This document shows, one piece after another, positions 1,699-5,421 of a stretch of DNA of 5,421 nt. Position 1 is the stretch's first letter. Each line of letters starts with the position of its first letter. This DNA is from a virus (taxonomy: Duplodnaviria > Heunggongvirae > Uroviricota > Caudoviricetes), in the IMG/VR virus record IMGVR_UViG_2663763171_000006. One strand, written 5' to 3'. The notes below the pieces were generated by a model, which was not told the origin of the DNA, did no database searches, and was given only the letters and a program-made list of their open reading frames with translations. Both the position numbers and the translations under genes were made by a program.

Positions 1699-2193
1699 AT
1701 GGCTGGAACGGCGGGGCGTTCCGGGCGTCGCCCCAAGCCAACGGCGCGCAAGGCGCTGGCCGGAAACCCCGGCAAGCGAGCCCTGAACAAAGATGAACCT
1801 GTTTTTACGCCCATCAAAGGTGTTGAGCCACCAGAGTGGTTCGCTGAAGAAGATCTCCCTCTCGCCACGATCATGTGGCAACTGACAACCAAAGAACTCT
1901 GCGGTCAGGGCCTGCTGTGCGTGACTGACCTGGCGGTACTTGAGCGGTGGTGCGTGGCCTATGAGTTCTGGCGACGTGCCGTGAAAAATATTGCCATACA
2001 GGGCAACACCATCACCGGTGCAATGGGCGGCAGGGTCAAAAATCCGGAGCTGACCGCCAAAAAAGAACAGGAGTCCGAGATGAGCAGCACGGGGGCAATG
2101 CTCGGACTCGACCCCAGCAGCCGCCAGCGTCTGATTGGCCTGGCGGGGCAGAAGAAAGCCACTAACCCGTTTCTGAAAATTATCGAATCATGA
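1699..2193 (+). CDS. Terminase small subunit (P27 family-like)
   Basis: About 165 aa with a basic N-terminus ([22 protein letters not shown]) and conserved position between HNH and large terminase. AGGAG SD at 1686-1690 sits 8 nt upstream of the ATG at 1699; the GTG at 1690 used by the ORF track lies inside the SD and is unlikely to be the start. The stop overlaps the large terminase start (ATGA at 2190-2193). Confidence 0.7.
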
Positions 2194-3923
2194 GCCGGAA
2201 ATCTTACCCCAACGTAAATGCTGCAAATCAGTATGCCCGGGATGTCGTGCGCGGAAAGATTGTTGCCTGCCAGTTTGTGATTCAGGCCTGCCAGCGCCAT
2301 CTTGATGACCTGATGGCGGAAAAAAGTAAGTCGTTTCGTTACCGCTTCGACAAGGACCTGGCTGAACGGGCCGCGAAATTTATTCAGCTGTTGCCGCACA
2401 CCAAGGGGGAGTGGGCATTCAAACGGATGCCCATCACGCTGGAGCCGTGGCAGCTATTTGTGATCTGCTGTGCGTTTGGCTGGGTCAATAAAGGCACCCG
2501 GTTGCGCCGCTTCCGGGAGGTGTACACCGAAATCCCCCGTAAGAACGGCAAATCAGCAATCTCTGCCGGTGTTGCCCTGTATTGTTTTGCCTGTGATAAC
2601 GAGTTTGGCGCGGAAGTGTATTCCGGTGCCACGACAGAGAAACAGGCGTGGGAAGTCTTTCGCCCGGCGCGACTGATGTGTAAACGCACACCCATGCTGA
2701 CGGAAGCGTTCGGGATTGAGGTTAACGCCTCAAACATGAACCGTCCGGAGGATGGCGCGCGGTTTGAACCGCTGATCGGCAACCCAGGTGATGGTTCATC
2801 ACCCCACTGTGCCGTGGTTGATGAATATCACGAGCATGCCACCGATGCGCTTTATACCACAATGCTTACCGGGATGGGGGCGCGACGTCAGCCACTGATG
2901 TGGGCCATCACCACCGCCGGGTACAACATTGAGGGGCCGTGCTACGACAAGCGGCGGGAAGTCATCGAGATGCTCAACGGCTCGGTGCCTAACGATGAAC
3001 TGTTCGGGATCATCTATACCGTTGATGAAGGTGACGACTGGACCGGCCCGCAGGTGCTGGAAAAAGCCAATCCAAATATTGGCGTGTCGGTTTATCGCGA
3101 ATTTTTGTTAAGTCAGCAGCAGCGTGCGAAAAATAACGCCCGTCTGGCAAACGTCTTTAAAACAAAACACCTCAATATCTGGGTGTCGGCGCGTTCGGCG
3201 TATTTCAACTTGGTGAGCTGGCAGAGCTGCGAGGATAAATCACTGACCCTTGAGCAGTTCGAGGGGCAGCCGTGCATTCTGGCCTTTGACCTGGCGCGTA
3301 AGCTGGATATGAACAGCATGGCGCGACTTTATACCCGCGAGATTGACGGTAAAACGCATTACTACAGTGTGGCCCCGCGTTTCTGGGTACCGTATGACAC
3401 GGTGTACAGCGTCGAGAAAAATGAAGATCGACGGACAGCCGAACGCTTTCAGAAATGGGTGGAAATGGGCGTTCTGACCGTTACCGATGGTGCGGAGGTG
3501 GATTATCGCTACATCCTCGAGGAGGCCAAAGCGGCGAACAAAATCAGCCCGGTCAGTGAGTCACCCATCGACCCCTTCGGGGCGACCGGGTTGTCACATG
3601 ACCTTGCTGATGAAGACCTGAATCCCGTCACTATCGTCCAGAACTTCACCAATATGTCCGATCCGATGAAAGAGCTGGAAGCAGCGATTGAATCGGGACG
3701 TTTTCATCATGACGGCAATCCCATCATGACCTGGTGTATCGGCAACGTGGTCGGCAAAAACATGCCGGGTAACGATGATGTGGTGAAACCCGTCAAAGAG
3801 CAGGCGGAAAACAAAATCGATGGTGCAGTTGCGCTGATTATGGCGGTTGGCAGAGCCATGCTGTACGAGAAAGAAGACACGCTGTCTGACCACATTGAGT
3901 CCTACGGGATCCGCTCGCTTTAA
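2190..3923 (+). CDS. Terminase large subunit (Terminase_1 / HK97-type TerL: ATPase plus nuclease)
   Basis: 577-aa ORF with a Walker A-like motif ([12 protein letters not shown]), acidic Walker B-like segments (e.g. CAVVDEYHE) and a C-terminal nuclease-like region containing acidic residues. Size and synteny (TerS, TerL, portal) are typical. Confidence 0.85.
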
Positions 3924-3934
3924 CTGAGGTAATT

Positions 3935-4117
3935 ATGATCATGCTGATTCTCGCGCCTCTGGTGGGCGTGCTGGGTGCGCTTTTGCTGGCGTATGGTGCC
4001 TGGCTGATTTATCCCCCGGCGGGTTTTGTTGTTGCCGGGGCGCTGTGCCTGTTCTGGTCGTGGCTGGTGGCGCGATATCTCGACCGTACACGGCAGTCTG
4101 TCGGCGGAGGTAAATAG
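3935..4117 (+). CDS. Hypothetical small membrane protein (60 aa, two predicted TM helices)
   Basis: GAGGT SD lies 5 nt upstream of the ATG. Two hydrophobic helices ([22 protein letters not shown] and [19 protein letters not shown]) are separated by a PPAG turn, with a basic C-terminal tail. Host-like codon usage (CTG, GCG, GTG rich). The 3' end carries the SD (GGAGG 4106-4110) and overlapping start (TAGTG) of the portal reading frame. Confidence 0.5.
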
Positions 4118-5273
4118 TGTTCTTTTCGGGATTATTTCAACGAAAAAGCGATGTGCCGGTGACCACGCCAGCAGAACTGCTGATGCTATCGGGCTGTCAT
4201 ACGACACCTATACCGGAAAGCGGATCAGTAGCCAGCGGGCCATGCGCCTGACGGCGGTCTATTCTTGCGTCAGGGTGCTGGCAGAGTCTGTTGGTATGCT
4301 GCCCTGCAGTCTCTACAAAATCAGCGGTACCCTGAAAACACGGGCGGTGGATGAACGACTGCATAAGTTGGTTTCGGCAAAACCTAATGGCTACATGACA
4401 CCGCAGGAATTCTGGGAGCTGGTTATTGTCTGCCTGTGTCTACGGGGGAATTTTTACGCCTACAAGGTAAAGGCACTGGGAGAAGTGGTGGAGCTTCTTC
4501 CGATAGATCCGGGCTGTGTGGAACCGAAGCTGAACAGCCAGTGGCAGCCGGTTTATCAGGTGACGTTTCCGGATGGTTCCGTGGATGTGTTGACCCAGAA
4601 TGAAATCTGGCATGTGCGCACCCTGACGCTGGATGGACTTGTCGGGCTGAATCCCATTGCGTATGCGCGTGAGGCCATTTCACTGGCAGCGGCAACCGAG
4701 GAGCACGGTGCCAGGTTGTTTAGTAATGGTGCGGTGACATCCGGTGTGTTGCGTACGGAACAAAAGCTCACGCCGGATGCTTACGAGCGTCTGAAGAAAG
4801 ATTTTGAGGAGTGTCACACGGGGCTTGGCAATGCTCACCGCCCGATGATTCTGGAAATGGGGCTGGACTGGAAGTCGATGGCGCTGAACGCCGAGGACAG
4901 TCAGTTCCTGGAAACCCGCAAGTTTCAGCTGGAAGAAATCTGTCGTCTGTTCCGGGTGCCGTTGCACATGGTGCAGAACACCGATCGCGCCACCTTCAAC
5001 AATATCGAAGAGCTGGGGCTGGGATTTATCAACTATTCACTGGTGCCGTATCTGACCCGCATCGAACAGCGGATCAACACCGGACTGGTACGAAAAAGTA
5101 AGCAGGGCGTTTATTACGCCAAATTTAACGCCGGGGCGTTACTGCGCGGGGATATGAAGTCCCGTTTTGAAGCCTACGCCACCGGGATCAACTGGGGAAT
5201 TTACTCTTCCAATGACTGCCGCGACCTGGAAGATATGAATCCGCGTCCCGGTGGTGTAATGCCGATCAGTTAA
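4117..5273 (+). pseudogene. HK97-family phage portal protein, apparently disrupted (N-terminus in a different frame; 3' end abutting or interrupted by an IS element)
   Basis: A strong start (GGAGG, 6-nt spacer, GTG at 4117) opens a frame encoding a portal-like N-terminus (FFSGLFQRKSDVPVTTPAELLMLSG) that stops at 4249-4251. The conserved portal core (TGKRISSQRAMRLTAVYSCVRVLAESVGMLP ... LLRGDMKSRFEAYATG ... LEDMNPRPGG) is in the -1 frame (the ORF track's 4026..5273 frame). That frame has no ATG or GTG between 4035 and 4242 and a Cys/Arg/Trp-rich out-of-frame-looking N-terminus. The reading frame ends inside the inferred IS terminus. Confidence 0.6.
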
Positions 5274-5305
5274 GGATCAGTTGACCGATCCAGTGGCTGT
5301 GTAAG

Positions 5306-5340
5306 AATCCGGAAACGCTCACTTGTTTCCGGATTTTTTT
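5306..5340 (+). terminator. Perfect 11-bp hairpin plus T-run immediately upstream of the transposase start (intrinsic terminator / translation-occluding structure)
   Basis: AATCCGGAAAC (5306-5316) pairs perfectly with GTTTCCGGATT (5325-5335) around the 8-nt loop GCTCACTT, followed by a 7-T run at 5334-5340 (the first two Ts are in the stem). The ATG at 5341 follows at once. Confidence 0.5.
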
Positions 5341-5421
5341 ATGCACATTGGACAGGCTCTTGATCTGGTATCCCGTTACGATTCTCTGCGTAACCCACTG
5401 ACTTCTCTGGGGGATTACCTC
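5341..5421 (+). CDS. IS4-family (DDE) transposase, N-terminal 27 codons (partial, 3' truncated by window end)
   Basis: ATG at 5341 follows the hairpin/T-run directly with no SD. The translation MHIGQALDLVSRYDSLRNPLTSLGDYL is recalled as the start of the IS4 transposase (InsG). Only 81 nt are visible. Confidence 0.5.
   Translation, partial: MHIGQALDLVSRYDSLRNPLTSLGDYL

Follow-up and report, generated by a model that had tools for sequence, protein, structure and literature searches.

The DNA considered here (the window, 5421 nt of IMG/VR record IMGVR_UViG_2663763171_000006) comes from the late region of an Escherichia/Shigella-type prophage, and the feature at issue is ymfR, a small open reading frame (ORF) at 3935-4117 that lies between the gene for the large terminase, TerL, and the gene for the portal. 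Like all the features dealt with in this part of the window it is on the plus strand, and it runs from an ATG at 3935 to a TAG at 4115-4117, specifying a 60-amino-acid member of PHROG 502. TerL (2190-3923; Pfam TerL_ATPase at 8e-26 and TerL_nuclease at 4e-33) ends in a TAA at 3921-3923, and 11 nt separate its stop from the ymfR start. Within that gap a Shine-Dalgarno (SD) sequence, GAGGT (3926-3930), can be read directly 4 nt before the ATG, and an alignment has it unchanged in phiP27, ST64B and e14. At the other end, the portal frame has its true start at a GTG at 4117 which shares 1 nt with the ymfR stop codon, and the portal SD, GGAGG (4106-4110), is itself in frame within ymfR, where it constitutes the codons for the C-terminal Gly-Gly of YmfR. 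The portal start is annotated at the equivalent base in phiP27, and in K-12 e14 there is an ATG there. An earlier note on this DNA, made from the letters alone, had given the ORF its coordinates, its own SD, its 11-nt spacing after TerL and two hydrophobic helices, and all of these are borne out by sequence and hydropathy; its placing of the portal SD in the 3′ end of ymfR, with a portal start overlapping the stop, is equally correct.

In composition ymfR resembles the genes that flank it, with a GC content at third codon positions (GC3) of 0.67 compared with 0.65 for TerL and 0.58 for the portal, its higher total GC (0.61) being due to its content of Gly, Ala, Leu, Pro and Trp. A scan of 3500-4500 for sigma-70-like promoters and intrinsic terminators on the plus strand found none. 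SfII carries the annotation ‘putative terminator’ within the 5′ part of its ymfR, and an attenuator or terminator inside the gene was considered; it was rejected, as the predicted fold of this RNA is no more stable than that of shuffled sequence (z=-0.22). Also rejected as a gene was a 95-amino-acid ORF on the minus strand (3920-4207), the substitution pattern being that expected of the plus-strand frame.

Kyte-Doolittle hydropathy in 19-residue windows peaks at 2.67 (residues 1-19) and again at 1.81 (residues 28-46), both above the usual membrane threshold, with the sequence YPPAG parting the two hydrophobic segments and a basic tail following the second. AlphaFold2, supplied with a 46-sequence alignment, gives helices at residues 2-25 and 27-55 with a mean pLDDT (predicted local distance difference test) of 76. 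YmfR is a membrane helical hairpin of about 60 amino acids. Transmembrane (TM) helix 1 (codons 2-25; 3938-4009), delimited from hydropathy, the AlphaFold2 model and alignments, has conserved G11, G14, G21 and W23. It is followed by the short YPPAG turn (codons 26-30; 4010-4024), which is predicted to face the periplasm and is the most conserved motif of the family (in general form [Y/F]-x-P-A-G), and then by TM helix 2 (codons 31-47; 4025-4075), placed from hydropathy and the model, in which G35, C38, W41 and S42 are conserved among enterobacterial members. What remains (codons 48-60; 4076-4114) is a basic tail, predicted to be cytoplasmic, that is variable save for a terminal GG[E/D/K]. By the positive-inside rule the basic tail, together with a basic N-terminal extension present in distant members, points to an N-in/C-in topology.

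The spacing of the glycines (G11xxG14x6G21 in helix 1 and G30x4G35 in helix 2) and the natural occurrence of tandemly duplicated, four-helix members of the family (P0156, P0177, P0182 and P0205, with P0177 ending on a portal start) suggest, as far as sequence can, that YmfR may self-associate. How one hairpin would pack against another is not reliably given by the AlphaFold2 model of P0182 made without an alignment, which is of low confidence (pLDDT 69.5; predicted template modeling score, pTM, 0.31).

The gene is already known. YmfR, or PHROG 502, has been in the databases since the genomes of K-12, phiP27 and ST64B were deposited, and the supposition that small hairpin proteins in such positions are usually unannotated does not hold in this instance. 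Residues 1-55 of the window protein match phrog_502 (‘membrane protein’; E=2.8e-28), a family that is also matched by all 46 of the diverse members in the family alignment (A3). It is identical at 58 of 60 residues (97%) to YmfR of the K-12 prophage e14 (RefSeq WP_000605606.1), with both differences in the tail (RQ versus QS), and its equivalents are L37 of phiP27 (‘putative integral membrane protein’), Sb3 of ST64B and SfII_03. A megablast search with 3700-4400, comprising the 3′ end of TerL, ymfR and the 5′ end of the portal gene, finds phiP27, ST64B, SfI, SfII, SfIV and others, in which the ORF is annotated as ‘putative integral membrane protein’ or ‘membrane protein’. Of 5426 complete E. 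coli genomes 1604 are matched by this query, in some cases over part of its length and without ymfR; where ymfR is covered, the RefSeq name is ‘ymfR: protein YmfR’. In e14 of K-12 MG1655 both neighbors of the gene, the terminase on one side and the portal on the other, are truncated. The e14, phiP27, ST64B and SfII versions agree with that of the window in length, in their position between TerL and portal and in the 1-nt overlap, and e14 and the window have in common that the adjacent portal is a pseudogene.

Annotation is nonetheless uneven. In PY54 (NC_005069; L109) an intact family ORF of 65 amino acids at 2295-2492, which shares 7 nt with the end of TerL and terminates at the portal start, is unannotated, as is an intact one near 2382-2483 in SfIV (KC814930, NC_022749). 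Records ON470584, ON470603, ON470580 and PQ793804 label the homologue ‘head-tail joining protein W’, which looks like a transfer by position from the lambda gene order A-W-B. Lambda gpW is a soluble head-tail joining protein whose gene is between A and B, and it has only this position in common with ymfR; identity of the two was rejected, since YmfR is a membrane hairpin and no gpW family appears in a Pfam scan at E<=1. Terminase-ymfR-portal sequence of the E. coli type, at 96-97% identity, also appears in a contig described as ‘MAG: Bacillota bacterium’ (JAEWTL010000102; L005), in a 1764-bp record named ‘Enterococcus phage Efm 3-10’ (OR844959) and in Edwardsiella hoshinae NBRC 105699 (L007), of which the first two at least look like contamination or mis-binning.

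None of this provides a function, and the earlier note's view that one cannot be read from the sequence is shared here. Pfam and NCBIfam assign no family, the matches being sub-threshold and to generic two-TM domains (TctB, DUF2244, DUF1206); a sequence-profile search of the PDB gave no match (E=0.97); and PADLOC-DB has no family at E<=1 for the window protein or three relatives. With Foldseek, the AlphaFold2 hairpin matched nothing in BFVD but small viral proteins that are uncharacterised (E>=0.047), there being too little fold information in two helices. Pfam DUF1056, comprising small proteins of Lactococcus and Streptococcus phages and considered as a possible Gram-positive counterpart, is matched by no YmfR relative, and the one paper found that names it does no more than list it. 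The literature found on ymfR, Sb3 and small membrane proteins at the terminase-portal junction consists of gene lists and one transcriptome table, without a functional study. In that table ymfR is up along with other e14 genes (log2 fold change 4.52) upon exposure to the siderophore-ampicillin conjugate LP-600, a treatment that according to the paper induces the SOS response too (PMC10012262).

Evidence that the product matters comes from how the sequence has, and has not, changed. A word-index search gave 166 clusters at 90% identity, nearly all of exactly 60 amino acids and, where named, mainly from Enterobacterales, and a 25-member alignment has an invariant or near-invariant core consisting of M1, L6, P8, G11, G14, L17, L18, G21, W23, I25, Y26, P27, P28, A29, G30, G35, C38, L39, W41 and S42. 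The frame is intact in 107 of the 108 homologous loci of the first fetches, and 107 fetched loci have among them 30 distinct nucleotide versions of ymfR, each of them intact. The survey of relatives for a lost or broken frame that had been proposed is, with the 80 portal-selected loci considered below, in favor of a real gene. The exception, and the only broken ymfR seen, is the second copy in Shigella flexneri SFBU0723 (L014, at about 3085), which has lost 1 bp from the CCCCC run in the YPP codons; the cause may be true decay, or an error in sequencing the homopolymer.

For 219 pairs with 0.1<dS<2, the ratio of nonsynonymous to synonymous substitution (dN/dS, or omega, by the Nei-Gojobori method) is 0.28 at the median and reaches at most 0.54. 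The value is not uniform along the gene, median omega being 0.19 for the TM core (codons 1-47) and about 1.0 for the tail. The TM core is under purifying selection and the tail is neutral apart from its terminal GG[E/D/K]. That exception has an explanation at the level of the mRNA, as GG[E/D/K] is conserved because the last codons encode the portal SD: at 14 divergent junctions these codons always comprise a G-rich, SD-like run (GGAGG, GGGGGTGA, AGGGTGA or similar) followed by TAATG, TGATG or TAGTG.

At greater distance, when 1.84 billion representatives are scanned with HMMER, 413 clusters (50% identity) match the family profile at E<=1e-3, and 27 do so at E<=1e-10. Almost all of the 413 are of 50-70 amino acids, and they have in common SYGAWL[IV]YxPAG[FY]I[VT]xG; further named hosts, in Plesiomonas, Pseudaeromonas, Salinicola and Marinobacter, come from a second word-index search made with a wider profile. 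In distant relatives nucleotide identity of ymfR is down to 53-78%, yet frame, length and amino acid motifs are kept. In 50 loci compared for all three proteins, the hairpin core is the best conserved, with a mean identity of 60%, the portal having 43% and TerL 36%.

The most constant attribute of the family, other than the hairpin itself, is where its gene is found, and this was approached from both directions. Where the only criterion was similarity to the phiP27 portal (88-99%), each of the 80 IMG/VR loci obtained has an intact 60-amino-acid ORF that ends 1 nt into the portal gene. Conversely, the motif YxPAG[FY]I by itself retrieves 213 relatives in IMG/VR, and 80 diverse environmental viral loci chosen by this hairpin motif alone, which encode 60 distinct hairpin proteins, have a portal profile match downstream in 76 of 76 and TerL upstream in 77 of 77 where the contig has room for it. 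The hairpin stop lies over the portal start in 74 of the 76, by 1 nt in 44 and by 4 nt in 30; in the other two the genes are 15 nt and 719 nt apart. On the other side, the distance from TerL to the hairpin gene is at most 20 nt in 60 of 76 and above 300 nt in 14. Because the stop/start overlap is near-constant and the TerL gap is variable, ymfR is evidently bound more tightly to the portal gene than to TerL. Hairpin divergence, too, goes more closely with that of the portal (Spearman 0.38, partial 0.35) than with that of TerL (0.23, partial 0.16), and SfV, which keeps the TerL type and has a different portal, has no ymfR. Seven very distant members (E from 1.7e-14 to 5.3e-6) are without exception directly upstream of a PF04860 portal, with TerL upstream wherever the contig is long enough and an S49 or S78 prohead protease downstream.

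From these comparisons, ymfR is a constant component of one large class of head modules of the HK97 type in Proteobacteria, that with a P27-type small terminase, TerL and a PF04860 portal. Its message is the late head-gene mRNA, on which ribosomes that terminate at the end of ymfR are placed to reinitiate at the portal start, so that translation of the portal is coupled to that termination. The coupling within the late operon that the earlier note had proposed for this one junction is a property of nearly all those surveyed, with the overlap of 1 or 4 nt in 74 of 76 and an SD in the last codons. The accompanying generalization, that HK97-type packaging modules run from the large terminase straight into the portal, stands for the type phage, since HK97 has no such ORF and its TerL and portal genes overlap directly by 1 nt, and does not stand for the wider class. 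Terminase and portal genes have been described as ‘more typically adjacent’ (PMC7302621). One distant subgroup has an additional conserved small head-module gene, a 64-amino-acid ORF without Pfam match that is between the portal and an S49-type protease and overlaps both (5436-5630 in L097 and L098; 2804-2998 in L099).

A hairpin without detectable homology to YmfR can occupy the same slot. orf3 of Pseudomonas phage D3 (L192, 2107-2271) encodes a 54-amino-acid hydrophobic hairpin of two helices, overlaps both TerL and portal, and has in its helix 1 a GxxGx6G spacing similar to that of YmfR. It differs in belonging to phrog_4810, in lacking the YPPAG turn and in its hhalign probability of 2%, and it may be a convergent analogue or a very remote homologue. 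The slot between TerL and portal has been filled by hairpins more than once.

In the window itself the gene next to ymfR is no longer functional. Though Pfam recognizes the PF04860 portal (Phage_portal, 3e-107) on an ORF at 4026-5273, the frame that begins at the GTG at 4117 ends after 44 codons at a TGA (4249-4251), owing to the loss near 4179 of a G that is present in phiP27, ST64B and e14 (GAACT-GCTGAT versus GAGCTGGCGGAT), a break that the earlier note does not mention. The remaining portal coding sequence (4180-5256) is in another frame than the GTG. In blastn comparison with phiP27 and ST64B the homology ceases at 5254-5256, and from 5257 to 5421 there follows the left end of an IS4 inserted into the portal 3′ end, 100% identical to E. 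coli IS4 (with matches in 2591 genomes) and including the start of the insG transposase (MHIGQALDLV...). The frameshift is a real mutation of the lineage and not a read error, because four IMG/VR contigs from different genome projects (L017-L020) are base-for-base identical to the window, deletion included. These identical contigs all end inside IS4, presumably where assembly broke at the repeat. The portal of the window, inactivated twice, by frameshift and by IS4, is dead, and for that reason the function of YmfR is moot here.

The window is, in addition, mosaic, with a TerL 95-100% identical to that of one group of relatives (L021, L044) and about 70% identical to that of phiP27; its portal is 94-98% identical to that of phiP27 and about 75% identical to those of the L021/L044 group. 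Between them an island at 3810-4215 that includes ymfR is 90-100% identical to both. To judge from these identities, the ymfR region behaves as a shared linker at which TerL and portal alleles recombine.

Further 5′, the window contains a complete lysis cassette of the phage-21 type (11-1184): a P21-type holin S (11-226; Pfam Phage_holin_2_1), a lysozyme (226-723) whose hydrophobic, Gly/Ala-rich N-terminus makes it look like a signal-anchor-release endolysin, Rz (708-1184) and, within Rz in another frame, Rz1 (940-1122). It is followed by a gene for an HNH endonuclease (1227-1577) and one for a P27-type small terminase (1690-2193). The arrangement at 1227-1689, with the HNH gene directly 5′ of the small terminase, is phiP27-like, and as the phiP27 cos site is annotated between these two genes, that of the window is probably within 1578-1689.

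What then might a membrane hairpin be doing when bound in this manner to a portal gene? The reading to which we lean, without according it an even chance, is that YmfR is a portal-linked inner-membrane accessory of head assembly. That it is a component of the module, and not cargo carried by it, is indicated by its invariant position upstream of PF04860 portals across very distant relatives. On this proposal YmfR would insert co-translationally into the inner membrane and self-associate through its glycine-rich helices; translation of the portal would restart on the same membrane-tethered ribosome and mRNA; and the membrane would thereby become the place where portal subunits are produced and accumulate, and where the ring can begin to form and the prohead be initiated. 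Were localization to be achieved through the coupled ribosome, this would explain why the tail is free to vary, and how one ymfR allele could serve portal alleles that are only about 75% identical. The parallel would be with assembly of the T4 portal, which is membrane-bound and depends on gp40.

In T4 the portal initiator, gp20, assembles on the inner membrane in a gp40-dependent manner (PMC9958956). The functional analogue proposed for YmfR would be gp40, a membrane-associated helper tying the portal ring and prohead initiation to the inner membrane, with the parallel drawn from inference only. There is no sequence relationship found or expected between the two, and the T4 portal is of a different family. 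T4 genes 40 and 20 are not known to have an overlapping stop and start of the kind seen with ymfR. A looser analogy is with P20 and P22 of PRD1, small integral membrane proteins that give the packaging vertex its physical organization and hold the packaging ATPase in place (PMC5850374). These are virion components without homology to YmfR, nothing suggests that YmfR is in a virion, and PRD1 has a membrane inside its capsid that tailed phages do not.

Several considerations weigh against an accessory role in head assembly. The tail, which is the sole part of YmfR able to reach a soluble portal, evolves neutrally, which argues against a specific interface between the two proteins, and a near-identical ymfR allele is found beside portals about 75%, and TerL genes about 70%, identical in nucleotide sequence. 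HK97 and SfV build heads without YmfR, and so it is not universally required. A need for a membrane is not known for the formation of HK97-type proheads. The strong conservation of intramembrane residues would fit the binding of a conserved host membrane protein equally well, and gene adjacency is linkage and not mechanism. One divergent tandem member, P0182, is in a head module without being next to a recognizable portal (it is located just before an S78 protease, among proteins with no PHROG match). Finally, the literature on members of the family contains no functional experiment.

The same conservation within the membrane brings in a first competing explanation, which is that ymfR is moron-type cargo, a small inner-membrane effector benefiting the lysogen by superinfection exclusion or by modulation of a host membrane protein, the latter being just what conserved intramembrane residues could signify. 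A small two-TM protein with a basic C-terminus does resemble exclusion proteins, ‘moron, auxiliary metabolic gene and host takeover’ is the category to which PHROGs assigns phrog_502, and ymfR is intact in defective prophages with a dead portal, namely e14 and the present window. The last point loses force on consideration that survival of a 183-nt gene in a young pseudogenised prophage is to be expected by chance. Morons are sporadic and positionally variable, whereas ymfR was present in all 80 portal-selected relatives and, in all but two of 76 motif-selected loci, has its stop over the portal start; it has neither promoter nor terminator of its own, an 11-nt gap upstream and none downstream, the base composition of its neighbors and no PADLOC match. 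Nor is it confined to phages with one injection route, phiP27, ST64B and SfII being myovirus-type in morphology and PY54 siphovirus-type. T4 Imm and HK97 gp15 are small two-TM inner-membrane proteins that bring about superinfection exclusion by blocking DNA entry, but these are expressed early or from the prophage and are not linked to a portal gene, in contrast to ymfR with its portal linkage, its lack of a promoter and its lack of any match in a defense database. The roles of moron effector, toxin or superinfection exclusion that had been offered as candidates for this ORF are left unsupported, and cargo of this type appears quite unlikely.

Quite improbable as well, in our estimation, is that what is selected is the act of translating ymfR, the gene being a leader cistron that sets portal dosage low relative to TerL and capsid and whose peptide has little or no function. 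It would be in keeping with this that the overlap is so regular and the portal SD is in the last codons, that the SD accounts for the one conserved feature of a tail otherwise neutral, and that HK97 couples TerL to portal directly with the same 1-nt overlap. A spacer, though, would not preserve a two-helix hairpin with a core omega of 0.19, nor, over 413 clusters, would G11, G14, G21, W23, the PAG turn and G35 have been retained, or the hairpin core be better conserved than the portal and TerL between which it is encoded. The occupation of the same slot by the unrelated-looking hairpin of D3 suggests, in addition, that it is the hairpin itself that is selected.

Very unlikely is a holin- or viroporin-like activity, by which YmfR would oligomerise and late in infection alter membrane potential or the timing of lysis, or be toxic. 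YmfR is like class II holins, such as S of phage 21, in having two TM segments, a short turn, glycine-rich helices, a charged C-terminal tail and a probable N-in/C-in disposition; its spacing of glycines is reminiscent of a glycine zipper, the tandem members imply self-association, and 3 of 46 family members have a weak, sub-threshold match to a holin family in Pfam (best E=0.09). These features are, however, shared by many unrelated small membrane proteins. The window protein itself has no significant holin match, the window already has its full lysis cassette 2.7 kb upstream of ymfR, and at the loci examined ymfR is never beside lysis genes, endolysin genes included, and always beside the portal. 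The M-I-M N-terminus was considered as a possible holin-like dual start and rejected, since it is not conserved, relatives beginning MIL or MFL.

That there is no gene at all, with the ORF fortuitous within a portal 5′ untranslated region or a recombination linker, has next to no chance of being correct, and is effectively refuted by dN/dS values well below 1 and by persistence of frame, length and motifs in distant relatives whose nucleotide identity is down to the 53-78% noted above, with synteny kept across the distant protein family and no significant RNA structure, even if in close relatives the TerL and portal alleles diverge on either side of a ymfR region that is 90-100% identical, as would be the case with a recombination linker. 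The remainder of our probability is reserved for something outside the explanations listed.

What is added here is clarification of the kind of gene that ymfR is: a deeply conserved, portal-coupled membrane hairpin, and not cargo. This corrects two annotations, the ‘head-tail joining protein W’ label and the ‘moron’ category in PHROGs. Nothing categorically new is involved, and in the present window, with its inactivated portal, the gene is without consequence. Elsewhere it is a cheap and well-defined knockout target for learning whether any step of HK97-type head assembly or packaging is linked to the membrane. A broader version of an accessory role in head assembly, rather unlikely as we see it, is that YmfR-family hairpins, and perhaps those like D3 orf3, are an overlooked third component of a very large class of HK97-type TerL-portal modules, which by way of the 1-4-nt overlap would compel portal synthesis to start on a ribosome tethered to the membrane, so that subunits gather in two dimensions and the portal dodecamer and the prohead are nucleated there. 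If true, membrane-initiated head assembly, so far a peculiarity of T4, would be widespread among temperate phages of Proteobacteria.

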